Positions 35,325 through 53,686 of a stretch of DNA of 64,000 nt are shown here, in pieces. Positions within the stretch are counted from its first letter, which is position 1. Every line of letters starts with the position of its first letter. A program made the position numbers and the translations under genes. The DNA lies in assembly GCA_002784465.1 (NCBI GenBank), contig PFLE01000004.1, forward strand, positions 8,494-72,493, in the 5' to 3' direction. The DNA is from Candidatus Shapirobacteria bacterium CG_4_10_14_0_8_um_filter_39_15. Its GTDB lineage: Bacteria > Patescibacteriota > Microgenomatia > UM-FILTER-39-15. A model generated the notes under the pieces. That model had not been told where the DNA came from, did no database searches, and worked only from the letters and a program-made list of their open reading frames with translations.

Positions 35325-36770
35325 ATGCTTAAACTATACAATACTTTATCGCATAAACTGGAAGAATTTAAACCAATAAATCCTGATCAAATAGGTGTCT
35401 ATTCTTGCGGCCCGACAGTTTATTGGAACCAGCATATTGGCAATATGTATGCTTTTGTTCAATGGGACGCGATGGTTCGGTTTCTGCGTTTTCTTGGTTG
35501 GAATGTTAAATGGGTAATGAATATTACGGATGTTGGTCATATGACTTCCGACGAAGATTCCGGTGAGGATAAAATGGAAAAAGGGGCCAAAAGAGAAGGA
35601 ATGACTCCTTGGGAAATCGCCGATAAATATTTAGGTCAATTTAAAGAGAGCATTGATTTATTGAACATTAAGCCAGATTTGTTGCCGAGAGCTACAGAAC
35701 ATATACAAGAGCAAATTGATTTGATTAAGAAAATAGAGGATCGAGGTTTTGCTTATAAAACAAAAACCGGATTGGTTTTCAATACGGCTAAATTTCCGGG
35801 TTACGCGGATTTTGCGCGATTAGATCTTTCAAAACAAGAAGCCGGTTCTCGGGTTGAAGTTGATCCGGAAAAGAAAAACCCCTGGGATTTTCTTCTTTGG
35901 GTAACAAATCAGCCTAATCATATTATGCTTTGGGATTCACCGTGGGGAAAAGGTTTTCCGGGTTGGCACATTGAATGCACGGCAATGTCAACGAAATATT
36001 TAGGAGAAACTTTTGACATTCATACCGGCGGCAAAGAGCATATTCCGGTTCACCATACTAATGAAGTGGCCCAAGGATTCGGCGCGTTTGGTCATCAAAC
36101 CGCTAATTTCTGGCTTCATAATGAGTGGTTGTCAATAAAGGGAGAAAAAGCAAGCAAGAGTTCGGGAAATTTTTATTTGGTAACTGACTTAGTGGAAAAA
36201 GGATATGATCCGTTAGCTTTTCGCTATTTGGTTTTAACTTCGCAATATCATTCCGGATTGGATTTTTCATTCGAGGCGTTAACCGGCGCGCAAACCACAT
36301 TATTCCGTTTGCGGGATCTGGTCGTTGGATGGAAACAGACCAAAGATGAAACCGGTTTTTCCCGGGAAACAATCGATAAGACGCAAGATTACCGCCAGAA
36401 ATTTATTGACGCGGTGAGCAACGATTTGAACTTTCCGGCCGGATTGGCCGTGGTTTGGGAAATGGCCAAATCGAATATCAATAGCGAAGACAAGCTGGAT
36501 TTAATACTGGAATTTGATAAAGTTATGGGATTAAGACTGGCAGAAGCAGGAAGCGAGAAGCGGGAAACATCGTCGGAAGTTGAGGAACTGGCGCAGAAAA
36601 GGGAAGTATTGAGAAAGCAAAAAAAATGGGAAACGGCGGATGAGGTACGGAAAGAGATTGAAAAGCTGGGTTACACGATAGAAGATAAAGCTGACGGATA
36701 CGTTTTAAAACATTGTCATTCCGAGCTTGTTTACACTGAGCGAAGCGAATGTGATTCAGAATCTATATAG
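35325..36770 (+). CDS. cysS: Cysteinyl-tRNA synthetase
   Basis: HIGH (HIGNMYA) and KMSKS (KSSGN variant KASKSSGN) motifs plus zinc-binding Cys residues. The C-terminal tail runs into a hairpin repeat. Confidence 0.88.
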
Positions 36771-36808
36771 ATTCCCGCTTTCCCTTACAGGGTAAACGCG
36801 GGAATGAC
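36715..36808. repeat. Hairpin repeat R, copy 8 (translated as the CysS C-terminal tail)
   Basis: GTCATTCCGAGC ... CCCTTACAGGGTAAACGCGGGAATGAC. Confidence 0.75.
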
Positions 36809-37472
36809 AGAGAAATCAAATTTATATATGCCTGACCGTCTACTTAAATTACTCCCTCAAATTTTAATTACAATAATTATTGTCAATGTTGTCTTTTTGG
36901 ATTTTTATTTAGGCGCCATAAGAAAGACAGAAACACCGGCGGAATCTTTGGTTCCGGTTGTTCAACCGACAGCGATACCGATTCAAGCAACCGAGAATTG
37001 TTCTTCCTGCCAGGCAATTGTTGAAAAAGAAGTTGCCAAACAAATTTCTTTGATTCCCAGTCCTACTTTGACTAAAACCCCAACGCCAACTTTAACTTTC
37101 GTAAATAGTCCAAAGGTTTTTTATATTCCTTTAGTTAACACCGGCTCGACTGTTTTAACCGAGTGGACTGATATTCCAGGGTCTGATTTTTATTTTAATT
37201 TGACTGATTATTCCGGCGCAAAAAGCGTTCAATGGGAAGCTTCTCTAAAGTCGGTAAACAGTCCGGCACGGGCAATGGTGAGATTGTATGATGTAACCAA
37301 TAAGAGAGGAGTAGATTATAGTGAATTACAAACGCAATCCATTACATATGCTTTGCTTCAATCTTCAGCAATCACCATTTGGAGGGGAAATAATCTATAT
37401 CGAGTCCAATTAAAAGCGGATAACGGTACCCAGGCGGATTTGGGAGCGGGAAGATTAAAGATAATATATTGA
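36804..37472 (+). CDS. Hypothetical membrane-anchored extracytoplasmic protein
   Basis: N-terminal TM helix, a Pro/Thr linker, and a beta-rich C-terminus. Confidence 0.35.
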   Translation: MTEKSNLYMPDRLLKLLPQILITIIIVNVVFLDFYLGAIRKTETPAESLVPVVQPTAIPIQATENCSSCQAIVEKEVAKQISLIPSPTLTKTPTPTLTFVNSPKVFYIPLVNTGSTVLTEWTDIPGSDFYFNLTDYSGAKSVQWEASLKSVNSPARAMVRLYDVTNKRGVDYSELQTQSITYALLQSSAITIWRGNNLYRVQLKADNGTQADLGAGRLKIIY

Positions 37473-37499
37473 TTTTTTTCTCTTGACAAATTATTATAA

Positions 37500-37796
37500 T
37501 TGTATTATTTTGGTAATATGAATAGAACAGTTTTGCAGATACCGGTTTCAAAAAATTTAAGAATAAAAGCCGAGGAAGCGGCATTAGCTTATGGTTTTTC
37601 TTCTTTACAGGAAGTTCTTAGGGTTTTTATGAATCGGTTGGCAAATAAATCGGTTGAGGTTTCTTTCCAGCCGATTATCAATCTTTCTACTGCGTCAGCC
37701 GCCAGACTAGAGAAGATGGACAAGGACTTTGAGGATAATAAAAATATTTTTATTGCCAAGGATTTAGATGATTTGAAAAGAAAACTTGCTAAATGA
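37500..37796 (+). CDS. Hypothetical protein, possible antitoxin partner of the downstream RelE/ParE remnant
   Basis: Approximately 93 aa (probable start at MNRTV) and 4-bp overlap with a degraded RelE/ParE-like ORF. Confidence 0.3.
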   Translation: MYYFGNMNRTVLQIPVSKNLRIKAEEAALAYGFSSLQEVLRVFMNRLANKSVEVSFQPIINLSTASAARLEKMDKDFEDNKNIFIAKDLDDLKRKLAK

Positions 37797-37993
37797 GAAT
37801 CGTTTATCATAAGCTATTTGAAAAGCACTTCAAAGAGAGGATTGCTTCGAATAAAAAGTTACGGGAGAAATTTTTTCAATGCTTGGATCTATTAATCGAA
37901 AATCCCCAAGATGAAATTTTAAGATGCCATCAACTTAGAGGATGAAACATTGTTTTTGTATGACATTGGTTCCCATGCCCAGGTATATTAACT
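37793..37993 (+). pseudogene. RelE/ParE-family toxin remnant (frameshifted and internally deleted)
   Basis: MRIVYHKLFEKHFKERIASNKKLREKFFQCLDLLIENPQDEILRCHQLRG then stops. A second frame continues DETLFLYDIGSHAQVY, which resembles a RelE/ParE C-terminus. Confidence 0.4.
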
Positions 37994-38029
37994 CTTGTTA
38001 TCTCTTGCTTCTTTTTGTATAATATTGCC

Positions 38030-38311
38030 ATGAGGAAATATGAATTGACCGTGATTTTGCCTGCTGATCTAGAAAAGGAAGATAACGAAAAACTACTGGG
38101 GAAAATAAAAAAAGCCATCGAAGACGGCAAGGGAAAAATTGAAAAAGCCGACGATTGGGGAAAGAAAGATTTTGCCTACGAAATTAAGAAATTAAAAGAA
38201 GGTAATTATTATTATTGGGAATTTTCGGTTGAACCTTCGCAATTATTCGATATTGATCGTAAAATAAAAGCAGAAGAAAAAATACTAAGATATCTTTTAG
38301 TTAAAGTCTAA
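38030..38311 (+). CDS. rpsF: 30S ribosomal protein S6
   Basis: S6-like sequence (MRKYELTVILPADLEKEDNEKLLGKIKKAIEDGKGKIEKADDWGKKDFAYEI) in the rpsF-ssb-rpsR order. Confidence 0.88.
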   Translation: MRKYELTVILPADLEKEDNEKLLGKIKKAIEDGKGKIEKADDWGKKDFAYEIKKLKEGNYYYWEFSVEPSQLFDIDRKIKAEEKILRYLLVKV

Positions 38312-38332
38312 GAAAACAATCTAAGCAAATAT

Positions 38333-38881
38333 ATGTCAACCAGATCGTTAAATAAAGTTCAATTAATCGGGAACATGACTCGGGATCCGGAATTGCGGTA
38401 TACGCCCCAAGGAACAGCTGTCTGTACTTTTGGATTAGCCACCAATCGGTCTTGGATAACCGATAACGGTGAGAAAAAAGAAGAAACCGAATTTCACAAG
38501 ATTGTCGTTTGGAATAAACTGGCCGAACTTTGTTCTCAATTGCTTTTTAAAGGCCGGAGGATTTATGTTGAAGGGCGATTGCAAACCCGATCGTGGACCG
38601 GTCAAGACGGAGTTGCTCATCAAACAACGGAAATTGTTATTTCTGATATGCTGATTCTGGATAATAAGCGGGCCGAAGGAGTTGGGGGAGCGGGGGCGGT
38701 TGTACCAGAAGCCGAAGAGGTTGTTGAACCTGTGGTAGCAGAATCGGTTGAGAAGCGAGAGGCGGGAAGCGAGAAAAAGACGGAAAAGGCCAAAAAAGAG
38801 GAAAAGCCCGAAAAATCGGAAGAACAACCTAAGGAAACAGAAGAAGGCGAAACTGTCAAAAAAGAAGACATTCCTTTTTGA
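38333..38881 (+). CDS. ssb: Single-stranded DNA-binding protein
   Basis: OB fold (VQLIGNMTRDPELRYTPQGTAVCTFGLATNRSW) and a long charged tail ending DIPF. Confidence 0.9.
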   Translation: MSTRSLNKVQLIGNMTRDPELRYTPQGTAVCTFGLATNRSWITDNGEKKEETEFHKIVVWNKLAELCSQLLFKGRRIYVEGRLQTRSWTGQDGVAHQTTEIVISDMLILDNKRAEGVGGAGAVVPEAEEVVEPVVAESVEKREAGSEKKTEKAKKEEKPEKSEEQPKETEEGETVKKEDIPF

Positions 38882-39126
38882 GATATATGATAAGACGAAA
38901 AACCATCAGACGTTTAAAATCAACCGAAAAATGTTATTTTTGCGTGGATAAATCTCTGCCTGATTATAAAAAGCCGGAAATTCTTGGTAAATTTATCAGC
39001 GATCGGGGAAAAATCCACAGCCGGAATCGGACCGGAATTTGTGCAAAGCATCAGAGAAAACTGGCGACCCAAATGAAACGAGCCCGCCACCTGGCATTTC
39101 TTCCGTTTATCACGCAAGTGCAATGA
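38878..39126 (+). CDS. rpsR: 30S ribosomal protein S18
   Basis: S18-like sequence (YFCVDKSLPDYKKPEILGKFISDRGKIHSRNRTGICAKHQRKLATQMKRARHLAFLPF). Confidence 0.88.
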   Translation: MRYMIRRKTIRRLKSTEKCYFCVDKSLPDYKKPEILGKFISDRGKIHSRNRTGICAKHQRKLATQMKRARHLAFLPFITQVQ

Positions 39127-39842
39127 ATTCAAATTTTCAGCCTGCCAACTTTAAGTTGAAAATTCCCATTTTTACGGGTGATAATATTTTAGTCAAGGTT
39201 GGGGAAAAAGTTAAACCCGAGCAACTTCTTTTTTCCGGTGACAGACAGGGTCCTTTGGTCGAAATCAACTTAGATGATAAAACATTAACCAGCCCTTTGG
39301 GTTCTAAAGTGGTTAAAGACCAGGTGATTGTCAAAACAAAATCGTTTTTAGGTGGAGGAAAAGAAATGAAAAGCCCATCCGACGGATTTCTGGAATCATT
39401 AACCGAAAGCGGAATATTAAAAATCAGAACCAAGGGTGAGCAGGAAAATTACCGTTGTCCGGCCGAAGGAAAAATTGAAGAAATCAGTGAGGCGATTTTA
39501 ATTGAATTCAAAGGTGTTAAGTTGGAAGCAGCTGACGGCTGGGGAAAGGGCAATTGGGGAATTTTGAAATTTCAAAAAGATATTTCGGTTGATGATCAGG
39601 GAGCAATTTTGGCGGTTCGGGAAAAACCGGATTTGGTTTTTTGTAATAAGGCTGAAGCCATTGAAGCCGGCGGTTTAATTTGTGGTAAAATAGCCGAAGG
39701 GCAAGGGAAAGATTTATCCTGTTTGATAATGGGTAGTGAAGAAGGCATAATTCCGGCAGAAATTTGGGAAGAATTGAAAAAATTTGAAGGCCAAAATGTC
39801 TATCTTGGCGGGAAAGAAAAAATTTTGTTTATTCCAAAATGA
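39123..39842 (+). CDS. Hypothetical protein (in the position where rplI often follows rpsR; not L9-like)
   Basis: Approximately 239 aa from MNSNFQ, with no recognisable motif. Confidence 0.3.
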   Translation: MNSNFQPANFKLKIPIFTGDNILVKVGEKVKPEQLLFSGDRQGPLVEINLDDKTLTSPLGSKVVKDQVIVKTKSFLGGGKEMKSPSDGFLESLTESGILKIRTKGEQENYRCPAEGKIEEISEAILIEFKGVKLEAADGWGKGNWGILKFQKDISVDDQGAILAVREKPDLVFCNKAEAIEAGGLICGKIAEGQGKDLSCLIMGSEEGIIPAEIWEELKKFEGQNVYLGGKEKILFIPK

Positions 39843-41083
39843 AAATTAAAATGTCCTTATCACAAATTAAGAAATTCATCATTTATTTAGCGGTTGTGGT
39901 TTTGGCAATTGGTTTTGGATATCGGTTGGGTCAATCCAAGGTTACGGTTTCGCTTAATTCCGGAAAATCTCTAATTAAAATTGATAGCAATCTTCCGGCG
40001 GATAAATCCAACATTGATTTTTCTTTATTTTGGCAGGTTTGGGATCGTTTGGAAGCAAATTATTTGCGGAAGGAAGGTCTAGACCCGCAAAAAATGATTT
40101 ATGGAGCAATTTCCGGCATGGCTTCCGCTTTAGGTGATCCATATACGGTTTTCTTGCCCCCGACAGAACAAAACTTATCAAAAGCCGATCTTGCCGGCAC
40201 TTTTGACGGCGTGGGGATTGAACTTGGTTATAAAGAGAGCAAGCTTGCGGTTGTTTCACCGCTTAAAGATTCGCCGGCGGAAAAAGCCGGCGTTAAGTCC
40301 GGTGATTTTATTGCTTGGATTAAAGATAGTCAGAAAAAAATTGATAAAACGACCCAAGGAATGACTTTGCCGGAGGCGGTTGAAATTATTCGGGGGGTTT
40401 CAGGATCTGAAGTAATTTTAACTTTGGTCCGGGATCAAGTCGAGAAACCTTTGGAAGTGACTTTAAAAAGAGCGCCGATTGTGGTTAAAAGCATTGAGTT
40501 AAGTTTTGATGATGATAAACAAATTGCCAAAATTAAGCTAATGCGTTTCGGCGAGCAAACCAATCGGGGGTGGGATTCAGAGGTGACGGCCATCTTAGGT
40601 CATAGTCCGCAAGTTAAGGGCATTGTTTTGGATTTAAGAAACAATCCGGGAGGATTTCTCCAGGGAGCAATTTATATTGCCAGCGAATTTATTGCTGATG
40701 GACCGGTGGTAAAGCAGGAAAATGCCGGTAATCGGGGAACTGATGTCTATAACGTTGATCGGAAAGGATTATTGACCAAAATACCCTTGGTGGTTCTTAT
40801 AAATGAAGGCTCTGCTTCTGCCTCGGAGATTTTATCAGGGGCCTTAAGAGAAAGGGTTAAAGCAAAATTAGTTGGTCAAAAATCGTTCGGCAAGGGAACG
40901 GTTCAGGAAGCGGAAGAATTTCCCGGCGGTTCTGGTTTACACATTACCATTGCCCGTTGGCTGCTGCCAAGCGGTAAATCAATTGACAAAGAAGGGATTA
41001 CTCCGGATTATTTAGTGGCGATGGACGATAAGGACTCAACGAAAGATCCGCAAATGGATAAAGCCATCGAATTATTAAGGTAA
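39839..41083 (+). CDS. ctpA: Carboxyl-terminal processing protease (S41) with PDZ domain
   Basis: N-terminal TM helix, a PDZ domain, and the S41 catalytic region (LDLRNNPGGFLQGAIYIASEF ... GSASASEI). Confidence 0.8.
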   Translation: MKIKMSLSQIKKFIIYLAVVVLAIGFGYRLGQSKVTVSLNSGKSLIKIDSNLPADKSNIDFSLFWQVWDRLEANYLRKEGLDPQKMIYGAISGMASALGDPYTVFLPPTEQNLSKADLAGTFDGVGIELGYKESKLAVVSPLKDSPAEKAGVKSGDFIAWIKDSQKKIDKTTQGMTLPEAVEIIRGVSGSEVILTLVRDQVEKPLEVTLKRAPIVVKSIELSFDDDKQIAKIKLMRFGEQTNRGWDSEVTAILGHSPQVKGIVLDLRNNPGGFLQGAIYIASEFIADGPVVKQENAGNRGTDVYNVDRKGLLTKIPLVVLINEGSASASEILSGALRERVKAKLVGQKSFGKGTVQEAEEFPGGSGLHITIARWLLPSGKSIDKEGITPDYLVAMDDKDSTKDPQMDKAIELLR

Positions 41084-41135
41084 TTCTCAGAATTAAGTAA
41101 TAAATTTTAATCATTGTCATCATAACAAACTAATT

Positions 41136-42317
41136 ATGAACAGGTTTAAAAGATTATTAACTATTTCAGCCTTGGTGATTGTTCTGGTTGTAGCGATTTT
41201 AGGCGGGGCAATTTCTGATCGGATTTTCGGTTATCGGGTTTTGGATCGGATTTTTCCGCGATCGAATTCCAGCAACTTATCTCAATTGCCATTTAGTCAA
41301 AAGGTTGTTAATGAAGAATCAGTGGTGATCGATGTGGTTGATAGAGTTTCTCCCAGCGTAGTTACCATTAATTTGAGTACAACTCAAACTACACCCGATC
41401 TCTCGCAATTTTTTGGTTTACCTTTTTCTTTTGGCTTTCCGCAAAATACTCAACCGCAGAATGTCACCCAAGACATTGCTACAGGATTTATTGTTTCAAA
41501 AGACGGTTTGATTGTTACCAATAAGCATGTGGTTTCGGATACGAGTGGAAAATATAAGGTCATTACTAAAGATAATAAATCCTATGATGTTCAAAAAATT
41601 TACCGCGATCCGGCCAATGACACCGCGATTTTAAAAATAAACCCTTCGATAAGCTCAGGGCAAGCGCTTATACCAGTGGAAATGGGGGATTCGTCAAAGT
41701 TGAAAGTTGGCCAGTTTGTAATTGCCATTGGAACAGCCTTGGGTGAGTTTCGCAATACGGTGACAACTGGAGTAGTTTCTGGTATTGGTCGTTCCATTAC
41801 CGCCGGATCTCCTTATCAAGGAACAGCCGAACAACTTGACAATGTAATTCAGACCGATGCGGCGATCAACCCAGGCAATTCCGGTGGTCCTTTGATTAAC
41901 TCTTCCGGCCAGGTGATTGGTGTTAATGCCGCGGTTTCCCAAGGCAGCCAAAATATTGGCTTTGCGCTCCCAATTAATTTAATAAAAGACTCGCTCAATA
42001 ATTTTAATAAAACTGGTCAATTCTCCCGACCTTTCTTGGGAATTCGTTACCAAATGATCAGTAAGGAAGTAGCGATAATGAATGAGGTTCCGGAGGGGTC
42101 TTATGTGATTGAAATTGTTTCCGGCTCACCTTCAGAAAAAGCCGGTTTAAAAAGAGGGGATATTATTACCAAAATGGATGGTCAGAAATTATCCGATACG
42201 GTAAGCATTGCTGATTTAATTAGCAAAAAGAAAGTTGGGGATACCGTAGAACTAAATATTTGGCGCAATAATCAGAACCAAACCGTTAAGGTTATTTTGG
42301 AAGAAGTAAGTCAATAA
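41136..42317 (+). CDS. HtrA/DegP-family serine protease with PDZ domain
   Basis: Catalytic triad context (TNKHVV; DTAILKI; GNSGGPLINSSGQVIGVN) plus a C-terminal PDZ domain. Confidence 0.85.
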   Translation: MNRFKRLLTISALVIVLVVAILGGAISDRIFGYRVLDRIFPRSNSSNLSQLPFSQKVVNEESVVIDVVDRVSPSVVTINLSTTQTTPDLSQFFGLPFSFGFPQNTQPQNVTQDIATGFIVSKDGLIVTNKHVVSDTSGKYKVITKDNKSYDVQKIYRDPANDTAILKINPSISSGQALIPVEMGDSSKLKVGQFVIAIGTALGEFRNTVTTGVVSGIGRSITAGSPYQGTAEQLDNVIQTDAAINPGNSGGPLINSSGQVIGVNAAVSQGSQNIGFALPINLIKDSLNNFNKTGQFSRPFLGIRYQMISKEVAIMNEVPEGSYVIEIVSGSPSEKAGLKRGDIITKMDGQKLSDTVSIADLISKKKVGDTVELNIWRNNQNQTVKVILEEVSQ

Positions 42318-42406
42318 TAACTTCCCAATCTTCAAGAAACTTTCTTACCAAAATTTAGGATATCCATAAAATTGTCATTGTTATTTAAATGTGATATGGT
42401 ATTTGT

Positions 42407-43066
42407 ATGGAAGACGAAAAAATAAGTGAACTGGCGGAAAAATTAAAAATCACTTTGGAGGAAGAGCAGAAAAAAGATTTTATAGATAAAACAAAAGAAA
42501 TTCTAAAATATCCTAAAGTTAAACTGGTTTTGGCCTTATTGGGTGTTGGTAGTGTCGTAGTGTTGGCCGTAGTTGCTCCCGGCGTTGGGTTGGCATTCAA
42601 AGGTGCTAGCAAAATTCTTGAGGACCAAAGCGATAAAGAATGGAAAAAATATAATCAGGGATTATTGCGTCGAACTCTTGATCGGCTTAATAAAAGAAAA
42701 ATGGTGGAATATGATCAGCAAGGGGACAAGGTGATTGTTAAATTAACCGAAGCGGGAAAGAAAATGATTCTTAAATATTCCCTTGATAATCTTGAGATTA
42801 AACGGCCGAAAATTTGGGATAAGCAATGGCGTTTGATTATTTATGATGTCCCTTATGGCAAAAGAAGGTGGGCTGATATTTTTGGGCGATGGCTGAAAAA
42901 TCTAGGGATGTATCGGATACAGAAAAGTGTTTTTCTTTACCCGTTTCCGTGTGATAATGAAGTTCAATTTCTAAGGGAATATTTAGGAATAGGGAAGCAT
43001 GTTTGGTTAATGAAAGTAACCAAGATGGAAAACGAATCGGTTCTTAAAGAATATTTTGGTCTGTAA
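42407..43066 (+). CDS. PaaX-like regulator, paralog 4 (with a predicted N-terminal TM helix)
   Basis: Core KIWDKQWRLIIYDVPYGKRRWADIFGRWLKNLGMYRIQKSVFLYPFP. It is bracketed by the direct repeat AATTTAGGATATCCAYRAAATTG. Confidence 0.6.
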   Translation: MEDEKISELAEKLKITLEEEQKKDFIDKTKEILKYPKVKLVLALLGVGSVVVLAVVAPGVGLAFKGASKILEDQSDKEWKKYNQGLLRRTLDRLNKRKMVEYDQQGDKVIVKLTEAGKKMILKYSLDNLEIKRPKIWDKQWRLIIYDVPYGKRRWADIFGRWLKNLGMYRIQKSVFLYPFPCDNEVQFLREYLGIGKHVWLMKVTKMENESVLKEYFGL

Positions 43067-43164
43067 ATTACGACAGAATTTAGGATATCCACGAAATTGG
43101 TAATGTAATAATTACAAAATATAAAAAAATAAAAACGGTTGGAAAAAAATTCTCTCTTAAATTT

Positions 43165-43422
43165 TTAAATCACTAGAAGGGAGTAGTGATTTTGTAAAGT
43201 TTTTCTCATCCTTGGCCGCTTGTGGTTCAATTCCTTTAGTTTCTCAACGATGATCTCAAGAGTCATTGTTTGTTCGGCGAGAAGTACTGGGTAGCCGGTT
43301 TCCAGAATTTCACCAGAGACGACAACTGCCCTTACTTGATTGGCAACATCCTGATTTGCACACATCAAGTGGATAAACTCTTTGGTGCTTTGCTCCAGGG
43401 GTTTGGAATAGAGGAAGTCCAT
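43165..43422 (-). CDS. Hypothetical protein
   Basis: 85 aa with no recognisable motif. Confidence 0.25.
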   Translation of the reverse strand: MDFLYSKPLEQSTKEFIHLMCANQDVANQVRAVVVSGEILETGYPVLLAEQTMTLEIIVEKLKELNHKRPRMRKTLQNHYSLLVI

Positions 43423-43559
43423 TCAAAGATGGCAACTGAGCCATCGGTTAAAAGGAACCCCCTTGCTTCGCAATCATATGGATTTCGGTTAGGTGAAAAG
43501 ACAAAGATCGCAATTTTTACTAAATGAAACTATACCATACGATAAGGCTAATTTCAAAT

Positions 43560-44258
43560 TTACAATGAAGAAGATTGAAGAAGGGATAGAATCGGTTGAA
43601 GGTTACCCTCAATAATTTTATCCAAATTATGCCAAGATTTATTAAGACGGTGATCAGTTACCCGGTTTTGTGCATAATTATACGTGCGAATTTTTTCAGC
43701 TCTCATGCCCCTGCCAATAGGCGAGCGGTAGCCGGCTTGGGTAGTTTCTTTTTCCAATTCCGATTTTTCCCAAAGTTTGGATCTTAAAATGGCCATCGCC
43801 AATTCGCGGTTTCGTTCTTGAAACCTTTCCTGCTGGGCCTGAACAACAATGCCGCTTGGAATATGGCGCAGTCGAACAGCCGTTGAAACCTTCTGGACAT
43901 TGTGACCACCGTGAGAAGAAGCGCGGTAAAATTCCCAAGCAATGTCCGCCGGGTTAATTTGAATCTCCTGTTCGCTGATTTCCGGCAGGACCGCAACGGT
44001 TGCTGTTGAGGTATGAATTCGGCCATAGCGTTCGGTTTGAGGAACCCGTTGGACACGATGAACACCCGATTCATGCTGCAACAACACAAAAGCGTTGGTT
44101 CCCTGGATTTTTATTACTCCGTCATCAATATCAAAAACTTTCCATCCTTGGGAATTGGCATATCTGGTATACATGCGCAGAAGATCATCTGCCCAGATTT
44201 TGGCTTCATCACCGCCGGTTCCGGGTCTGGCTTCAATGATGGCAACATCGGTTTTCAC
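43560..44258 (-). CDS. prfA: Peptide chain release factor 1-like protein lacking domain 1, with GGH in place of GGQ (possible pseudogene)
   Basis: Strong RF1 similarity ([29 protein letters not shown] with a PxT-type motif PQT; [15 protein letters not shown]). The catalytic motif reads SSHGGHNVQ (codon CAC). The ORF begins at the domain 2 equivalent, and the upstream part of the gene is in the rpmE reading frame. Confidence 0.7.
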
Positions 44259-44572
44259 TGTTTCTTTTCAAACAAACCTCGAAGATTTTGTGGTCTTTCT
44301 TTTTCTTTTGCTTCTTCTTCCAAGCGGCGCAATCTTCTTTTTTCAACTTTTTTGACGATTTTGGTGGTTGAGGCCTTGCTTTGTCTGGCTTGAAATTTTT
44401 CTACCATGCCGGCCGTATCAATTAATTTCATTTCCCCGGTAAAGAACGGATGGCACTTTGAACAGACATCAACATGAATTTCCGGCTTGGTTGAACCGAC
44501 GGTAAAAGTATTCCCGCAAATGCAGGTAATTTTAGCATCAGGATACCATTTGGGATGGATATCTTTTTTCAT
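44255..44572 (-). CDS. rpmE: 50S ribosomal protein L31 with an approximately 38-aa C-terminal extension resembling the end of RF1 domain 1
   Basis: The L31 core ([46 protein letters not shown]) is followed by ...[24 protein letters not shown], which resembles the RF1 motif ELREAKEK...LLLPKDP. Confidence 0.75.
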
Positions 44573-44584
44573 TTGAAGATAATT

Positions 44585-45847
44585 TTACAACATTGAGAGT
44601 TCTTTTACAAGCTCGTCTGAGGGTATAGTTTTTTGAGTTCTTGATTTTAAGTCTTTTAGGGTTACTTGATTGGATTGAATTTCATCAGGACCAAGAATAA
44701 TCGCATACGGAATATTTTTCTGATCTGCGTATTTAAGTTGCTTATCTAATTTGGTTTCAGGGATAAGATAAACTTCAGTATTAATAGAATTTTGGCGCAG
44801 TTGATTTGCTATTTCCAGGGATTTATCAAACAAATTAGCAGAAAAAACAGTGACTAAGATTTTTGTAACAGAATCAAAATTGGGTAGTAAATTAAGTTCT
44901 TCAAGGGCTTCTAGTGTTCGGTCAAATCCGAAAGCAATTCCTGTAGCGGGAATATCTTTACCGGTAATTCTTTTGAACATACCATCATATCTTTCGCCTC
45001 CACCAACTGAGCCGGCAAAAGTATTGGTTGAATAACCGGAAATTGTCATTTCCCAAATAGGTCCTTCTGAATAGGACAATGACCGGCAAAGTGTTGGTTC
45101 GAATCGATAATAAGATTCATCAAGTCCGGCATTTTTTAGGTAATCAAAAATAATCTTTATTTTTTCATCCGGTTTAAGATTTTCTACCTTGTTTAAATAT
45201 TCCAAAGCCATTTTTTTAGAAATTCCTTTCTTTTGCATAACCTCAATTACACCATCTTTTCCAATTTTTTTAAGCTGGTCAATGGCCGCGATTGCAGGAT
45301 AGGGGATTCCCGCCAGTAAATCTCGATTATTTATAATTGCCACGGGTTGTTTGAAACCTAACGATTTGTACAAATCAATACTGACGGCAATACATTCGGC
45401 ATCGGCAATCGGTGATTTAATTCCATAAATGTCAATATCGGCTTGGGTAAATTCTCGATAGCGACCTTTTTGGGGTTTTTCTGCTCGGAAAGTTGATTGA
45501 ATTTGATAACGGCGAAAAGGAAAAGTAATTTCGTCTGCGTATTGGCCAACAACACGGCAAGATGGAACGGTTTGGTCATAGCGTAAAGCCACTTTTCGTC
45601 CGCCCGGATCTTCGAATTTGAAAAATAATTTTTCATCTTCGCCAATTTCCCCCTCAAAAAGTTCTAAAGATTCAACCGTAGGACTTTCCAAAGGTTCATA
45701 CCCCCATTTTTCAAATACTTTGACCATTTGGTCTTCTAACCACTGTCTTTTCTGAGCCTCCTCGGGTAAAAAATCCCGGAAGCCTTTTAATGGTTGTAGT
45801 TTGGTATCCATATTTGTAATCATATCATTCATGTTATTGGTTAACAA
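44585..45847 (-). CDS. hisS: Histidyl-tRNA synthetase
   Basis: Class II motifs and the HisRS N-terminus (LKGFRDFLPEEAQKRQWLEDQMVKVFEKWGYEPLESPTVE). Confidence 0.9.
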   Translation of the reverse strand: MLTNNMNDMITNMDTKLQPLKGFRDFLPEEAQKRQWLEDQMVKVFEKWGYEPLESPTVESLELFEGEIGEDEKLFFKFEDPGGRKVALRYDQTVPSCRVVGQYADEITFPFRRYQIQSTFRAEKPQKGRYREFTQADIDIYGIKSPIADAECIAVSIDLYKSLGFKQPVAIINNRDLLAGIPYPAIAAIDQLKKIGKDGVIEVMQKKGISKKMALEYLNKVENLKPDEKIKIIFDYLKNAGLDESYYRFEPTLCRSLSYSEGPIWEMTISGYSTNTFAGSVGGGERYDGMFKRITGKDIPATGIAFGFDRTLEALEELNLLPNFDSVTKILVTVFSANLFDKSLEIANQLRQNSINTEVYLIPETKLDKQLKYADQKNIPYAIILGPDEIQSNQVTLKDLKSRTQKTIPSDELVKELSML

Positions 45848-46245
45848 CCGAGAGCAACTACTTTTGCCGAAACTCTTATTTTATTTTGCTTATTTTCCAC
45901 ATAAATTGATTCACCCGTTGGTTGGATAATTTTATTGATACCCAAAATAATATTTGTAGCGATACTTGCTGATCCGCAAGCAGTCTCTTTGAACAAAGAA
46001 TTAGTTTGTTTTACATACACATAGGGTTCAATCCTGTTTTCATCTGTTAATACAATTCCAAAAGCCGGAAGTCTATACTCGTTTGTAAGTTCCAACAAAC
46101 TCCTTCTAGTAATTCTAATTTTTTCCTTAGTAACTAAAAAACCTATTCCGGACAATAAAACAAAACCATTACAAAACCGATTTGTTCGACCGATCCTAAG
46201 TAGTTTTTTACTAAATTCTTTCTTTGACTTAACGGACAATTCCAC
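45841..46245 (-). CDS. DapF-like (diaminopimelate epimerase C-terminal domain-like) fragment
   Basis: 134 aa with an ACGSASIA motif resembling the DapF second-domain Cys motif. It is about half the length of DapF. Confidence 0.3.
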   Translation of the reverse strand: MELSVKSKKEFSKKLLRIGRTNRFCNGFVLLSGIGFLVTKEKIRITRRSLLELTNEYRLPAFGIVLTDENRIEPYVYVKQTNSLFKETACGSASIATNIILGINKIIQPTGESIYVENKQNKIRVSAKVVALGC

Positions 46246-46333
46246 ACTAAAAGAGTAGAGTTACCCCCAGCGATTAAAAATTTTTAAGCCTGAGTTTGTT
46301 TATCATAGTTTTTTAATGATATTTGCATTATTT

Positions 46334-46408
46334 TGGGTGGCTGACGGGAATTGAACCCGCAACATCCAGTTCCACAAACTGGCGCTCTGCCATTGAGCTA
46401 CAACCACC
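46334..46408 (-). tRNA. tRNA-His (anticodon GTG) with the G-1 extra 5' nucleotide
   Basis: Reverse complement is G-GTGGTTG TA GCTC AATGGC AGAGC G CCAGT TTGTGGA ACTGG ATGTT GCGGG TTCAATT CCCGT CAGCCAC C. The cloverleaf folds with one G-U pair in the acceptor stem, and G-1 is paired with C73. Confidence 0.85.
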
Positions 46409-46927
46409 ACGTAAAATTTCTTCGAAAATTAACGTGGTTAGTCGCGTTTAAATCTTAAAGACTTATTACACGACACCATCCTTGACAACATCCTCCGCAT
46501 CTTAGCACTCAGCTTTTCAGTATTATTCATACACGCTTCGTGTTGCGATTGCTGGAGGATTGGATCTTCATGCGACAAACTTTTCGTTATTAACTCCAGT
46601 TTGTCTGGAAGATCACAAAAAAACCTCTCGTTCTTTGCATTTGTCGACAATGACAAAAACAAGGAACGAGAGGCCTTCGACTTACCCGCCCATCCTTATT
46701 CCCTGTACCGTTACTGGTACGGGGCTCTCAGGTCGGCTCTACTTTGCGGTGACACCGACTGTTGGATTTTACGGTTCAACTTCCGTCGAGTATTTGGCTC
46801 GCTGCCCGTGGATCGTGACTCCACTTAACGCTTTCTAAATATTAAACTTGTATTATTATACAAGAAATAATTTTAATGTCAAATTTACATATTTGACAAA
46901 CGGCCGCTAAGGAAGTATTGTAAAAAT

Positions 46928-47707
46928 ATGGGTAGGAATAGAACGACGAAAGAGAAAGTTGAGGAGTTTTCCAAAGGAGTTTTGGAAACGTCGATGGATA
47001 TGAGTTTGTTTATTGTTGGTTTGGGAATTCAAAGCTATAGTATTAGTTCTGGAAGAACCGATTTTTTCAAGGCGCTGGAAAATTCTGGAGATTTTGTTAA
47101 ATCTGTTAAGAAAAATTATTTACGAAGGGGAGTTTATTCTGCCACTCAAAAAAAGTATTTAGAGAAAAACGAAAATGGTTGGCAGTTAACAAATGAAGGA
47201 CAAATAAGATTAGACGAGATATTGCCTAAATATCATCGCAAACGACTTTGGGATGGAAAAATATATCTTATTACTTATGATGTTCCTGAAAGTAAACGAA
47301 AAGATAGAGATTTATTAAGAGGTTATCTTAAAAGAATTGGTTGCGGTATGTTTCAGGCTTCTGTTTGGTTAACTCCTTACGATCCAGCAGAACAACTCAC
47401 CCGTTTTATAAAAGATTTTCGAATTTCAGGTTTTATCGCTGTATCAAATATTGGGCGCGATGGAAATGTTGGTCGTATGTCTGTAAAGGATTTAGTCCAG
47501 AGTGTATATTGTTTGGATCGTCTAAATGAAAGATACCGATATTTTTTAATCGAAAGCCAGAAACAAAGAATGACGCTGATTGAAACAAATTTCCATTTCC
47601 TCTCAATTCTTAAAGATGACCCGCAACTTCCTTTTTCTTTATTACCTGATGGTTGGTTAGGGGATAAAGCTTTTAATGTTTACAATACTTTAATAGCGGC
47701 CGCATAA
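46928..47707 (+). CDS. PaaX-like winged-helix regulator, paralog 5
   Basis: Core RLWDGKIYLITYDVPESKRKDRDLLRGYLKRIGCGMFQASVWLTPYD and C-terminal DDPQLPFSLLPDGWLGDK. Confidence 0.65.
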   Translation: MGRNRTTKEKVEEFSKGVLETSMDMSLFIVGLGIQSYSISSGRTDFFKALENSGDFVKSVKKNYLRRGVYSATQKKYLEKNENGWQLTNEGQIRLDEILPKYHRKRLWDGKIYLITYDVPESKRKDRDLLRGYLKRIGCGMFQASVWLTPYDPAEQLTRFIKDFRISGFIAVSNIGRDGNVGRMSVKDLVQSVYCLDRLNERYRYFLIESQKQRMTLIETNFHFLSILKDDPQLPFSLLPDGWLGDKAFNVYNTLIAAA

Positions 47708-48000
47708 AAAGTATCGTAATTTTGATTATCGGGTATATAGCGGTTGTAAAAGGTTCCAAAGACTATCTTGTGTACTTATGAGCAGACAAATAAGGATTAC
47801 TGTAAACATTTTGTTGCCGTGGCGATAATATGAGACAAACAAAGACATTTTTCCCTTCCGTCTTCGGATGAAATTAAGAATTTATGTTGAGTGTGTTGAA
47901 AGAGATTTGACATCACTAACTTGTTGTTAGGATTATTTTCCAGGATTTCTTTACAACGGCTATCATTCCTGGTGTGTACGAACGTAAATGATCTTAAAAA

Positions 48001-48780
48001 TTATTCCGTTGGAGTTGGGGTAGCCTTGGGGGATTTTGTCGGAGTTGGTGTTGAATTTGATAAACCCGGGATAATATGAATCCTGGTAGCTGTTAATATT
48101 CCGTTATCGGTTTTTTGAATTCCGATCGCCGTAACCCAATCATTTACACCAATTTTGTCAAAAGTAATTGGGGTTATTTTTCCATTGACCATTTGGGTAA
48201 TAATCGTTGACGTTCCCACCTGAATTTTGATTGCCAGATTTGGGTTGGGTTTGGTAATGGTTACAATCTTAGTGCCTTTCTCGATTTTGGTTATCGGTCC
48301 GGAAAGGGCATTTCTGGTCAGTGACGGTTTGGGGGCAGTTGCCAAAACAATAATTCTTTTTCCGTCGAGGTTGCCGTTTTCCTGCCAAAGCCCTAAAGCA
48401 ATTAGATAGTTGCCAATTTCCAAATCGTTAATTTTAACCGCTTTTTTATTCGTCGTTAGAAAAGCTGTTGAGGAATCGGTTTTAATTCTTTTTTCTCCAT
48501 CAGTTGAATCAAGAATCAAAGTTGCGTTTGTTATATTTTTTAAAGTTCCCCAAAAAGCTTTTTGCTGGCTTTCGGTTGCCAGATTATTAATTCTTTCCTG
48601 AACCTTTTGCTTAATATTTTCCGCCGGGGTCGAAGTAGGGGTTAGGGGAGGAGTAGACGTTACCGCCAGAACTGGCGTCACGAAGAAACTTAAAAACACA
48701 AAACCTAAAATAATTTTGCATTTTGCATTTTGCATTTTGATTTTCGTATTAGATTCCTTCCTTTGAATAAACCAGGCCAA
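48001..48780 (-). CDS. Hypothetical secreted protein with Pro/Thr-rich linkers
   Basis: Signal/TM N-terminus, TPPLTPTSTP and TPTPTKSPKATPTPTE segments, and a beta-rich core. Confidence 0.4.
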   Translation of the reverse strand: MAWFIQRKESNTKIKMQNAKCKIILGFVFLSFFVTPVLAVTSTPPLTPTSTPAENIKQKVQERINNLATESQQKAFWGTLKNITNATLILDSTDGEKRIKTDSSTAFLTTNKKAVKINDLEIGNYLIALGLWQENGNLDGKRIIVLATAPKPSLTRNALSGPITKIEKGTKIVTITKPNPNLAIKIQVGTSTIITQMVNGKITPITFDKIGVNDWVTAIGIQKTDNGILTATRIHIIPGLSNSTPTPTKSPKATPTPTE

Positions 48781-49225
48781 TTTTTTTTGTCACTTGATTA
48801 CCATTTTGGCTATAAACCGTGACGGAAATATCGTTGACTCCGGAAATCAAGCTGACTTCATCGTCAAAATTCCCGGCAGAATCGCTTTGAATAATATCTT
48901 CTCCATTTTCCCAAATGAGCACTACCGGGAGGTTGGGCAAAGTATTGCCGGAAACAACAATCTGATTAGTATTACTGATGCTTTGATTTTCCGGTTTAAT
49001 AATCGTTAAAAAGAAAGGTGATAAGGTTGGCGTTGGGCTGACATTCACTAGCGGTTGAGATTTACTATTGATCTTTGGATTTTTTCCTTTCTGGAGATTC
49101 AGGGCATTGTTGGCGGTCCAAACACCACCCGTGATGACTAACCCTAAAATAAAACTGCCAAGGATTACCACCAAGAGTTCTTTTTTCATCGGTTTGACTA
49201 TAGCTAAAAATAGTTGTCTTGTCAA
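48749..49225 (-). CDS. Hypothetical membrane-anchored or secreted protein
   Basis: N-terminal TM helix followed by a beta-rich extracytoplasmic domain. Confidence 0.35.
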   Translation of the reverse strand: MTRQLFLAIVKPMKKELLVVILGSFILGLVITGGVWTANNALNLQKGKNPKINSKSQPLVNVSPTPTLSPFFLTIIKPENQSISNTNQIVVSGNTLPNLPVVLIWENGEDIIQSDSAGNFDDEVSLISGVNDISVTVYSQNGNQVTKKIGLVYSKEGI

Positions 49226-49253
49226 GGAAAACGTTTTTTGATATGATGCCTGT

Positions 49254-49766
49254 ATGGAAATTGTTTATTATGGTTGTTTATCTTTTCGCATAAAAGGCAA
49301 AAATGTTTCAATCGCGACCGATCTTTTGGGAAAAGTGGAAGTTGAGGATAGTGGTTCTGTTTTTCCGATTCAGCATCCGGGAGAATACGAAATTAAAGGC
49401 GCTTCGATTTTTGGATTTAGCACTTCGGAAAATAATATTTGCTACCTGTTCGAGTTGGAAGGTTTGCGGCTTTTTCATTTAGGTAATATCAAGGGAAAAT
49501 TGACGGATAAGCAATTGGGGGAAATCGGTGAGGTTGATGTTCTTTTTGTTCCGGTTGGTGGAAAAGATACTTTGGTACCAAAAGAAGCGATGGAAGTGAT
49601 TTCCCAAGTCGAACCAAAAATCGTAATTCCGATGAATTTTGACTCGCTGGACGAATTCTTAAAGGAAGAAGGGGATGGCGCGGAAACCTTGCCGAAATTA
49701 ACGATTTCGAAATTGGATTTGCCGATCGAAACAAAAACCGTTATTTTAGAAAGAAAAAGTGGCTGA
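49254..49766 (+). CDS. Hypothetical protein
   Basis: 170 aa with no recognisable motif. Confidence 0.25.
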   Translation: MEIVYYGCLSFRIKGKNVSIATDLLGKVEVEDSGSVFPIQHPGEYEIKGASIFGFSTSENNICYLFELEGLRLFHLGNIKGKLTDKQLGEIGEVDVLFVPVGGKDTLVPKEAMEVISQVEPKIVIPMNFDSLDEFLKEEGDGAETLPKLTISKLDLPIETKTVILERKSG

Positions 49767-52332
49767 AACTCGTATTCCTCCGCATTCAGACGAGGCGGAA
49801 AAATCCGTTCTCGGCGCCTGCCTGATTGATAAAGACGCTATTATTGACGTAGCGGAGTTTTTGCGGCCGGAACATTTTTACAGTGATGCCCACGGGGATA
49901 TTTTTAAAGCGATTTTGAGTTTATACGAAAACCGGTTGCCGGTGGATTTGGTGACCTTGGCAGATAAGCTTCGGAAACAAAAAGATTTAGAGAAAGTCGG
50001 CGGGGCGGCTTATCTTTCTGAACTGGCTTCAATGGTGCCGACGGCGGCCAATGTCGCGCATTACGGACAAATTATTAAAGATTCTTATATCAAGCGGATG
50101 TTAATTTCTTCGGCCGGTAAAATTTCCGAAATGGCTTTCGATGAAGGCAATGAGGCGTCTTTTATTTTAGATAAAGCCGAACAAAATATTTTCAGTTTAT
50201 CCCAATCTCATTTAAAGCAGGTTTTTATCCCGATCAGCGCTGCTTTGGCCGAAAGTTTTGACCGTTTGGACGAATTATACAAAAAGGCTGGCGGATTAAG
50301 AGGGGTGCCGACCGGATTTAAAGATTTGGATAATATGCTGGCCGGATTCCAGCAGTCAAATTTAATCGTTCTGGCGGCTCGTCCGGGTATCGGGAAAACC
50401 GCCCTGGCTTTAAATATGGCCAGACATATTGCCGTTGAAGAAAAAATGACGGTGGGGATGTTTTCCTTGGAAATGAGTAAGGAAGAATTATTAGACCGTT
50501 TGTTGATTACCCAAGCCGATATTGACGCTTGGAAATTGAAGACCGGAAAACTAGATGAAGAAGACTTTACCCGGCTTTCCGATGCCATGGGAATTCTAAA
50601 CGAAGCACCGTTTTTTATTGACGATACACCGGCCATTTCGGTTTTGGAAATGAGAACCAAAGCCAGAAGATTACAGGTGGAACACGATTTAAAATTAATT
50701 ATTATCGATTATATGCAGTTGGTCCGCGGACGAAATTTGGAAAACCGTGTTCAGGAAGTTTCGGAAATTTCTCAAGGCTTAAAAAATTTGGCTAGAGAAT
50801 TAAAAATTCCGGTCATTGCCGTTTCCCAGTTAAATCGGTCGGTTGAAGTCCGCGGGGGAGCCAGACCAAGATTAGCGGATTTGCGGGAAAGCGGCTGTCT
50901 TGTGGGGGAAACGTTAATAATGCGGGTTGATACGGGAGAACTGGTGACAATTAAGCAATTGGCAGAATCTGGAGGAAAAATTCCCGTTTTTGCCATGGAT
51001 AATAATTTGAAACTGAAAGTTTGTCCAATGGTGAAAGCTTTTTCGAGCGGAAAGAAAAAGATTTATCGTTTATCTTTGCGTTCTGGCAGGGAAATAAGAG
51101 CTTCTTCTAATCATAAATTTTATACTTTGTTTGGGTGGACAAGTCTGGACAAACTTAAAATTAACGAAAGGTTAGCTGTTCCGAGAATTATTCCCTTTTT
51201 CCAAAAATTAATTAATTTTTCTGAAGATAAATTAATCCTATTGGCTCATTTTATTGGGGATGGTTGTTATTTAAAAAACCAACCTCTTCATTATACGAGT
51301 GGTAGTCTTGCCAATTTATCGGCAGTGGAAAAAGCGGCCAAGGGTGGTTTTGGATTATCCGGACGAAGAGTAAAACAAGAGAATTGGTATCATATTTACT
51401 TTTCCGGTAATCAAAAAGAGGGTCTCAAAAACCCGATTTCCCAGTGGTTCAAAGAATTGGGGATTTTTAATCAAAGGTCTTACGAAAAAGAGATCCCCAA
51501 AATAATTTTTACTCTTCCTAATTCCCAGCTTTCAATTTTTTTAAGTCATCTTTGGGCAACCGATGGAAATTTTAGCAAAGCATCGGAAGGCGGATATGCG
51601 ATTTATTACGCATCTACCAGTTTTAAATTGGTTAAAGGAGTTCAACATCTTCTTTTAAGATTTGGAATTTTGTCGCAAATTCGCAAGACAAAAAAGGAAG
51701 GTTATCGGGGTGGATTTATCGTTGATATTTCAGGAAAAGTTAATCAATCAGTTTTTCTTAAAATAATTAGTGTTTATGGTCGAGAAAACGAAGGCAAAAA
51801 AGCTTTGGAAAAACTGGAAATTATTAAAGAAAATCCCAACCTTGATGTTATTCCTAAAGAGGTTTGGGAATTAATTGAAAAACAAAGAGAAAAACAGGGA
51901 TTGTCAACCAGAGAGTTTCATCAGAAATTGGACTGGGCATATAGCGGGACACAAAGGCATAAAAATGGAGTTAGTAGAGAAAGATTAAACCACATATTGC
52001 AGGTGTTAGAAAACCAGACGCTTAAGAATTTGGCTAATTCAGATTTATATTGGGATGAAATTCTGAAAATAGAGGAAGAGGGCATAGAGGAAGTTTACGA
52101 TGCGACGGTTGAAAGTTCCCATAACTTTTTGGCTAATGATATTATTGTTCATAATAGTATTGAGCAAGATGCCGACGTGGTGATTTTTCTTTATAAGGAA
52201 GATGAGGATAATCCGGAAAATATTACCGCGGAAATTGCCAAACACCGCAACGGTCCGACTGGTTTTCTAAAATTGAGATTTGTTCCCAACCGAATTTCTT
52301 TCTTCGGAGTGGAAACTAAAAGAAAAGAATAG
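49759..52332 (+). CDS. dnaB: Replicative DNA helicase DnaB containing a 420-aa intein
   Basis: DnaB N-domain, Walker A (ARPGIGKTALALN) and Walker B (LIIIDYMQLV). The conserved RPRLADLRESG / SIEQDADVV element is split by a Cys...His-Asn insertion. Confidence 0.92.
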   Translation: MAETRIPPHSDEAEKSVLGACLIDKDAIIDVAEFLRPEHFYSDAHGDIFKAILSLYENRLPVDLVTLADKLRKQKDLEKVGGAAYLSELASMVPTAANVAHYGQIIKDSYIKRMLISSAGKISEMAFDEGNEASFILDKAEQNIFSLSQSHLKQVFIPISAALAESFDRLDELYKKAGGLRGVPTGFKDLDNMLAGFQQSNLIVLAARPGIGKTALALNMARHIAVEEKMTVGMFSLEMSKEELLDRLLITQADIDAWKLKTGKLDEEDFTRLSDAMGILNEAPFFIDDTPAISVLEMRTKARRLQVEHDLKLIIIDYMQLVRGRNLENRVQEVSEISQGLKNLARELKIPVIAVSQLNRSVEVRGGARPRLADLRESGCLVGETLIMRVDTGELVTIKQLAESGGKIPVFAMDNNLKLKVCPMVKAFSSGKKKIYRLSLRSGREIRASSNHKFYTLFGWTSLDKLKINERLAVPRIIPFFQKLINFSEDKLILLAHFIGDGCYLKNQPLHYTSGSLANLSAVEKAAKGGFGLSGRRVKQENWYHIYFSGNQKEGLKNPISQWFKELGIFNQRSYEKEIPKIIFTLPNSQLSIFLSHLWATDGNFSKASEGGYAIYYASTSFKLVKGVQHLLLRFGILSQIRKTKKEGYRGGFIVDISGKVNQSVFLKIISVYGRENEGKKALEKLEIIKENPNLDVIPKEVWELIEKQREKQGLSTREFHQKLDWAYSGTQRHKNGVSRERLNHILQVLENQTLKNLANSDLYWDEILKIEEEGIEEVYDATVESSHNFLANDIIVHNSIEQDADVVIFLYKEDEDNPENITAEIAKHRNGPTGFLKLRFVPNRISFFGVETKRKE
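50896..52155 (+). mobile_element. DnaB intein with LAGLIDADG homing-endonuclease domain
   Basis: Begins CLVGETLIMRVD at Cys380 and ends IIVHN, followed by +1 Ser. Two LAGLIDADG-like blocks are present (LLAHFIGDGCYL and LSHLWATDGNFS). Removing it restores a DnaB of about 437 aa. Confidence 0.88.
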
Positions 52333-52493
52333 TTAGGGGGTTAGGGTGAGGCAGTTGGTATGGTGAGGAGGTAAAGGTAATGGGGAAGCGGAAAGAGATT
52401 TACCCTGAGCGAATGGTGAGCGTAGTCGAACCAGAGTCGAGGGGAAAAACATGGCCACAGAAGAGCAAGAATAATTTTCTGTGGCCAAGTATG

Positions 52494-52832
52494 TTATTTC
52501 TTAGGTGGACAGCGTTCTGACCAGAAATCAGCCCCTGATTCATATTCATAGACAGAAAGGAATTCGAGACGGGATGGACTATTCGATGTAGGGTAAGCTA
52601 CATAGATTCCTCCGGTTATTGACGGATTAACGCTGATACTTACGTGTGGTGAGCAGTCCCAATCAGGCAGATAGTTCTTTACCGATACGGATGGTTGGGA
52701 TAATTGGTGGAATATCTGATTACTCCTGGTGACCAACATATAAGCCCCTATCAACATGAGTATCACGATGAGTGTCATAATTAAGGCTAAGATCTTTTTT
52801 TCCCAATCTGTCGTAGGTAGAAAACGTTTCAT
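52494..52832 (-). CDS. Hypothetical membrane protein
   Basis: 112 aa with one TM helix. Confidence 0.3.
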   Translation of the reverse strand: MKRFLPTTDWEKKILALIMTLIVILMLIGAYMLVTRSNQIFHQLSQPSVSVKNYLPDWDCSPHVSISVNPSITGGIYVAYPTSNSPSRLEFLSVYEYESGADFWSERCPPKK

Positions 52833-53682: not shown

Positions 53683-53686
53683 AACT

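Follow-up and report, generated by a model that had tools for sequence, protein, structure and literature searches.

The window analysed here is a stretch of 64,000 nucleotides from contig PFLE01000004.1 (positions 8,494 to 72,493 of the forward strand) of the metagenome-assembled genome (MAG) Candidatus Shapirobacteria bacterium CG_4_10_14_0_8_um_filter_39_15, assembly GCA_002784465.1, and all coordinates below refer to this stretch. On its minus strand lie hisS (44585..45847), rpmE (44255..44572) and prfA (43560..44258), encoding histidyl-tRNA synthetase, ribosomal protein L31 and peptide chain release factor 1 (RF1), respectively; hisS was assigned through Pfam matches of tRNA-synt_His and HGTP_anticodon to the identical gene on sibling contigs. 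The prfA open reading frame (ORF) starts with GTG at 44258..44256, stops with TAA at 43562..43560 and specifies a naturally short RF1 of 232 residues, comprising domains 2, 3 and 4. We consider it very probable that the locus represents an intact hisS-rpmE-prfA string in a genome of the Microgenomates, within the Candidate Phyla Radiation (CPR), with a prfA that is normal for its lineage, and that GGH in the place of the catalytic GGQ motif is private to this assembly. The original prediction, made from the letters of this DNA, had instead viewed the locus as the outcome of a recent deletion that joined rpmE to a remnant of RF1.

That the minus-strand ORF 43560..44258 is RF1 had been recognised from the start, and Pfam, the NCBIfam prfA models and alignments to RF1 structures agree on this identity. 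The RF-1 domain (PF00472) is matched over the full Pfam model (E=8.4e-33), and PCRF (PF03462, E=1e-31) at model positions 102-194 only, i.e. its C-terminal half. Among the NCBIfam families prfA ranks first, with 298 bits over model positions 106-339, followed by prfB (198.8), prfH (63) and ArfB (47). The prfA equivalog cut-offs are nevertheless missed (NF001859, 298.4 versus 400 bits; TIGR00019, 288.6 versus 423.25), because one third of the model, the N-terminal one, is unmatched. The tripeptide PQT (44034..44042, minus strand) occupies, as already noted in the initial reading, the site of the PxT 'anticodon' motif typical of RF1, aligned with PVT of T. maritima RF1 and PAT of E. coli RF1, and P-x-T is found in all of the 120 best database matches to the RF1 protein, which form our homolog set. 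RF2 has SPF at the codon-recognition position where RF1 has P-x-T. As to gene context, rpmE is located directly upstream of prfA in 35 of 39 related loci, taken from GTDB species representatives, and since it adjoins short and N-domain-bearing RF1 genes alike, the short gene is the positional ortholog of prfA and no extra paralog.

The part missing from this RF1 is the whole of domain 1. The protein aligns with residues 85-320 of T. maritima RF1 and residues 111-337 of E. coli RF1, alignments to the E. coli and T. thermophilus RF1 structures begin at approximately residue 107-111, and the NCBIfam match starts at model position 106. An RF1 without domain 1 had indeed been predicted, in agreement with the PCRF match beginning at model position 102, but its extent was underestimated: rather than about 65 N-terminal residues, all of domain 1 is absent, corresponding to approximately 105-110 residues relative to E. 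coli or 84 relative to T. maritima. No in-frame extension is concealed upstream, because a TGA closes the RF1 frame four codons ahead of the GTG, and a domain-1 hidden Markov model (HMM) detected no domain-1-like sequence in a six-frame translation of the 64-kb window (best E-value 3.4).

Comparison to relatives demonstrates that in hundreds of related organisms the RF1 is normally short and shares this N-terminus. All of the 120 best homologs are 224-251 residues long with aligned N-termini (MNxx[VI]AI[IL]E...), starting, as the window RF1 does, four to eight residues ahead of a (I/L)(I/L)E(I/A)R(P/G)G(T/V)GG motif; their named sources are Shapirobacteria, Woesebacteria, Gottesmanbacteria, Microgenomates and 'Patescibacteria group', and they are annotated as 'peptide chain release factor 1', 'release factor-like protein' or 'PCRF domain-containing protein'. 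In the related loci, 38 of which were scorable, one being cut by a contig end, 28 leave no space for an N-domain, the frame being open for no more than 23 codons ahead of the match. The other ten (L028, L029, L031, L033, L035, L038, L039, L042, L043 and L057), from lineages labelled Amesbacteria, Levybacteria and others, keep a reduced N-domain of about 70 residues (66-76) in RF1 proteins of approximately 293-338 residues. Because these reduced N-domains align to the C-terminal half of E. coli domain 1, near its DPEL..LA.EE motif, a reduction series emerges from canonical (~105-118 residues) via ~70 residues to none, in which the RF1s with a ~70-residue N-domain are the intermediates. The short, intermediate and canonical classes are all present among cluster representatives at 50% identity.

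These data bear directly on the deletion first proposed, in which a recent partial loss of domain 1 would have joined rpmE, across a frame break, to what remained of RF1; the gene would then be a decaying paralog or pseudogene, and the L31 tail a leftover of domain 1. The ORFs do abut out of frame, and the tail and the last domain-1 helix are both charged and helix-like. However, both the short RF1 and the long L31 tail are conserved in many genera, the tail coexists with an RF1 N-domain in at least six loci, tail and domain 1 share no similarity, and the junction is a common 4-nt overlap. Moreover, of the 91 columns with a conservation of 95% or more, the window RF1 departs from only one, at H119; with these columns otherwise intact, the gene is not decaying, and the suggestion of a decaying paralog is unlikely. 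The comparative data thus refute the deletion, fusion and remnant model, to which we assign next to no probability, the short form being lineage-wide.

Two observations on the compared sequences are reported for completeness. The RF1-like cluster representatives P0124 (477 residues) and P0125 (481 residues) each contain two separate matching stretches and may be fusions, insertions or inteins. In addition, many of the TPA_asm MAG records with CPR-type rpmE-prfA loci (L021-L023, L026, L029-L031, L033-L035, L038-L043 and L058) bear the title 'uncultured Gammaproteobacteria/Pseudomonadales bacterium', and L025 that of 'Bathyarchaeia archaeon'; the taxonomic naming of such records looks unreliable.

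The upstream ORF (44255..44572, minus strand) encodes an L31 of 105 residues. Its core, residues 1-63 (44384..44572), belongs to type-A L31 (Pfam Ribosomal_L31, PF01197, E=8.5e-29; NF000612, 96.5 versus a cut-off of 70), the NCBIfam L31 equivalogs exceed their cut-offs, and the zinc-type cysteine pairs C17xC19 and C37xxC40 are present in the translation. As the Pfam and NCBIfam models span residues 1-63/68 only, a lineage-specific C-terminal extension of about 40 residues follows (residues 64-105, 44258..44383), charged and helix-like, which matches the roughly 38 extra residues noticed earlier. It can be aligned across 26 L31 proteins of related CPR genomes and carries the common motif (R/K)P(K/R/Q)(T/S/N)L(K/R)EM(L/F), in the window the terminal RPQNLRGLF (44296..44270). 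The resemblance of this tail to the last helix of RF1 domain 1, on which the fusion idea was built, did not survive closer comparison: comparing the profiles of tail and domain 1 by hhalign returns a probability of 0.07%, BLASTP searches with the tail yield no alignment to domain 1 of E. coli or CPR even at E<=100, and the HMM search of the window was likewise negative. The tail is a conserved Microgenomates extension unrelated to RF1. Tsurumaki et al. (bioRxiv 10.1101/2022.01.07.475337) list L31 among the ribosomal proteins of increased size in CPR relative to other bacteria, and the 40-residue tail is one instance of this enlargement; that paper contains neither the RPxxL(K/R)EM(L/F) motif nor its distribution, and release factors are unmentioned in it.

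The distribution of tails and N-domains also permits an assessment of whether L31 could stand in for the lost domain. A long RPxxL tail coexists with an RF1 N-domain in L028, L029, L031, L033, L035 and L057, and in L044-L056 a short RF1 is paired with short, Lys-rich L31 tails; since the long tail occurs with and without an N-domain, and the short tail with a short RF1, tail type and domain-1 status are independent. It has been considered that domain 1 is provided in trans by a separate small gene, as a split RF1, or that the L31 extension co-evolved to compensate for its loss. The strong conservation of rpmE-prfA adjacency and coupling is compatible with such a scheme, and the same idea has been raised for the gene upstream of RF-H (PMC1586002). 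However, neither the 64-kb window nor the L31 tail yields a match to domain 1 in profile searches, and compensation is at odds with the independent variation of tail and domain. Furthermore, proximity of rpmE and prfA is also common in ordinary bacteria such as B. subtilis, and altogether we regard either variant as very improbable.

The two genes meet in a 4-nt GTGA overlap (44255..44258), in which the L31 stop codon TGA (44257..44255) and the RF1 start codon GTG (44258..44256) are interleaved. The ORFs thus abut out of frame, as originally described, but the frame break proposed along with it is absent, the arrangement being a stop/start overlap. Across 34 related loci the spacing of the two genes, measured between the L31 stop and the RF1 start, varies between -8 and +110 nt, every frame relation occurs, and five of these other loci have the identical -4 overlap. 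Because spacing and frame vary in this manner, the junction is in keeping with operon packing and translational coupling and rules out a conserved frameshift site or a fusion product; the GTGA overlap would then be an ordinary translational-coupling junction.

Programmed -1 frameshifting at AAACAGUGA was also put forward, producing an L31-RF1 fusion in which the tail serves as a substitute for domain 1 in cis. While the overlap and the one-base offset of the ORFs would allow it, the 34 related loci, with their three frame offsets and intervening stops, reveal no conserved slippery site, and the relatives possess their own start codons at the homologous N-terminus. In addition, L31 is located at the bridge between the central protuberance and the 30S head, far from the L11 stalk region that is bound by domain 1, and this textbook position is difficult to reconcile with a role of the tail at the domain-1 site. 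Of all alternatives weighed here, we hold frameshifting to be the least probable. Read-through of TGA (code 25) was rejected as well: TGA ends 20 of the 68 ORFs of the window, and reading through the L31 TGA leads into another frame than that of RF1. One locus labelled 'Paceibacterota' (L032) exhibits, at approximately 3953..4000, a strong hairpin followed by a T-run, CAGACACTCTTGGAGTGTCTTTTTTTT, between rpmE and a short prfA without an ATG start; as this element separates the two genes, rpmE and prfA are apparently not always co-transcribed.

Where the catalytic loop of T. maritima RF1 reads SGHGGQYVNK, the window RF1 has GGH (43902..43910, minus strand), as seen in the alignment to RF1 structures. 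The report of HGGH in the place of GGQ, through a CAC codon, is hereby confirmed, except that the His codon had been placed at 43909-43911 and is found at 43904..43902. The change comes down to a single base, 43902, private to this assembly: the coding strand has C instead of A, and the plus strand G. GGQ is present in 119 of the 120 best homologs, the lone exception, PIY66172.1, being the NCBI entry of the same MAG, and the exact GGH protein, in its 232-residue and 226-residue forms, is on record in no other assembly. Nineteen contigs from other ENA, Logan or JGI samples, 99.7-99.98% identical over up to 4 kb, all have CAA (Gln), and so do eight longer extracts spanning window positions 33526..54258; these make up 27 locus extracts, the eight longer ones deriving in part from the same contigs as the 19.

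The extracts reflect one population that was sampled repeatedly in the ENA, JGI and Logan assemblies (identity above 99.95%), and position 43902 is the sole site at which the window stands alone versus all eight long contigs. One of these, L059 (ERZ27293407 k141_318520), equals the window over 20,699 bp except at 43902 and shares its haplotype at all other polymorphic sites. Three such sites, 39986, 41946 and 44324, split the haplotype of the window and L059 from L060-L066; the change at 44324 is a synonymous CGC/CGT difference in the L31 tail.

The Gln of GGQ is universally conserved and normally N5-methylated. In light of this, GGH is in all likelihood a consensus or assembly error, or else a transient minor variant, deleterious and of low frequency; most likely, it is no property of the organism or its lineage. 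An error is favoured over a real allele because selection should purge a real change at an invariant Gln, whereas an error is blind to selection. The assembly artefact that was among the options raised at the outset is therefore the most likely reading of GGH, with 43902 private against 27 extracts.

Alternatively, GGH may be real and dominant in the population, either as a hypomorph that is tolerated, with RF2 covering UAA and few genes ending in TAG, or as a still-functional variant. The base does stand in the deposited MAG (PIY66172.1), and it is unlikely that a random error, as the only private change in 20.7 kb, would hit the catalytic codon. Shaw and Green are said to have found in 2007 that several substitutions of this Gln retain release activity in vitro. 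According to PMC5799190, this side chain is packed into the peptidyl-transferase centre and contributes to coordinating the hydrolytic water, rather than being the sole catalytic group. Conversely, all 27 extracts from other samples read CAA, including the one that is otherwise identical over 20.7 kb, GGQ is kept in 119 of 119 other homologs with the GGH protein in no other assembly, TAG ends 11 of the 68 window ORFs, so that RF1 function is needed, and selection should remove a real change at an invariant residue. We consequently view a real, dominant GGH as unlikely. The narrower proposal of an allele that is real, dominant in the source population and still functional, with His replacing the catalytic Gln in a lineage already without domain 1, is distinctly improbable. 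That CPR bacteria as a group terminate with a domain-1-less RF1, and hence without RF3 coupling, is more probable than a functional GGH.

The 68 ORFs of the window end in TAA (37), TGA (20) and TAG (11). With all three stop codons in use, the standard code applies and RF1 function is needed, consistent with the earlier remark that TAG still serves as a stop. As TGA and TAG are both used as stops, RF2 is expected to be encoded elsewhere in the genome. Searches by tblastn, using E. coli queries, identified no second release factor, PrmC or L11 in the 64-kb window and flanks of up to 10 kb, which constitute a small part of the genome, so that this negative does not extend to the genome as a whole.

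Based on these data and on studies of E. coli, we propose that the short RF1 operates as follows. In the course of evolution, the RF1 of this lineage has lost its entire domain 1. Domains 2 and 4, with the PxT motif, would recognise UAA and UAG, and domain 3 would place GGQ in the peptidyl-transferase centre. Domain 1 is presumably required only for the interplay with RF3 and the L11 stalk: PMC1586002, citing Mora et al. 2003, describes domain 1 of E. coli RF1 as dispensable for codon recognition and hydrolysis but needed to stimulate RF3, and the domain-1-truncated RF1 as functional in vivo. RF3 is, moreover, missing from small genomes (PMC1586002). The short CPR RF1 should then terminate without RF3-assisted recycling, and its translation is likely coupled to that of rpmE via the GTGA overlap.

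Several considerations weigh against the reading of the locus preferred here. The private base at 43902 is the sole one in 20.7 kb and falls on the most conserved codon of the gene, which would have a chance of approximately 1e-4 for a random error, although this improbability loses weight because this very anomaly was the reason for choosing the window. The artefact reading itself derives from comparison combined with the logic of purifying selection, and stays probable rather than certain on that footing. The presence of a second prfA and of prfB, prfC (RF3), prmC and rplK was judged from the window and its short flanks only. Finally, the suggested RF3 independence of the short RF1 is extrapolated from experiments in E. 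coli.

Compared to canonical RF1 (T. maritima 1RQ0/2FVO, E. coli, and T. thermophilus 4V63/4V7P), the short protein has the same domains 2-4, with approximately 55% identity to T. maritima in this region, and shares the PxT motif, the context of the GGQ loop, the C-terminal RTYN(F/Y)xQxRVTDHR and the location downstream of rpmE. It differs in that the N-terminal helical domain 1, which interacts with the GTPase RF3, is entirely absent, in two small deletions within domain 2, in a score below the prfA equivalog cut-off and, in this assembly, in GGH. The same architecture of domains 2-4 is found in engineered E. coli RF1 and RF2 without domain 1 (Mora, Zavialov, Ehrenberg, Buckingham 2003), which, as recounted in PMC1586002, keep stop-codon specificity and peptide release. 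In contrast to these laboratory truncations, made where RF3 is present, the CPR truncation is natural, fixed and lineage-wide, and known from sequence.

A natural class-I release factor homolog without domain 1, with a codon-recognition-type domain and GGQ, is also represented by PrfH/RF-H, which is translationally coupled to its upstream gene as well (PMC1586002; PMC6514570). However, RF-H diverges in its 'anticodon' region and invariably occurs together with RtcB, whereas the protein described here has PxT and is preceded by rpmE instead of rtcB. An identity as PrfH was accordingly rejected: TIGR03072 scores 63 bits versus a cut-off of 166.65, over the GGQ domain only, compared to 298 bits for prfA. 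ArfB (YaeJ), ICT1 and C12orf65 are likewise truncated members of the release factor family that keep the GGQ domain, but they are devoid of the codon-recognition domain and probe the empty mRNA channel with a basic C-terminal tail, in contrast to the full PCRF/PxT domain at hand. ArfB was rejected too, as NF006718 gives 47 bits versus a cut-off of 100 over 36 residues only, and the PCRF decoding domain is present. In the literature we found no description of a domain-1-less canonical RF1 in CPR, a search that left papers available by subscription only uncovered; the sequences themselves are already public.

Collectively, the locus contains no gene fusion, frameshift or decaying paralog, and the change from GGQ to GGH should be regarded as biological only if reads support it. 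A 4-nt stop/start overlap together with a domain loss typical of the lineage can mimic damage, which calls for caution in automated readers. A large share of CPR carries a canonical RF1 ortholog that is naturally without domain 1, with sister lineages at the intermediate ~70 residues, and such short RF1s are the equivalent in nature of the truncations made experimentally in E. coli. They predict RF3-independent termination and altered contacts to the L11/L7-L12 stalk on the reduced CPR ribosome, and the CPR proteins could serve as minimal RF1s in structural and synthetic biology.

Downstream of prfA, a gap of 490 bp (43067..43559), unusually long for a compact genome, separates it from a convergent PaaX_M-like gene; different gene callers put an 85-residue ORF on either strand of this gap. 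Rfam and promoter/terminator scans of the gap 3' of prfA and of the operon returned nothing above chance and no clear terminator. Two genes with a PaaX_M domain, assigned by Pfam on sibling contigs, flank the hisS-rpmE-prfA string, at 42407..43066 (plus strand, 219 residues) and 46928..47707 (plus strand, 259 residues), and this pair is possibly the 'paralog' mentioned in the original prediction.

Two further features of the window lie outside of this region. A tRNA-like element at 17149..17209 (plus strand), located between the ORFs 16229..17092 and 17291..18010, matches Rfam with 39 bits (E=4e-7 locally) through an acceptor stem, D arm and T arm; 7 nt replace the 17-nt anticodon arm, and ARAGORN makes no call. 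The gene of the DnaB helicase (49759..52332, plus strand, 857 residues) is interrupted by an intein, with Pfam matches to DnaB, DnaB_C, Intein_splicing and LAGLIDADG_3 in the identical gene on sibling contigs.

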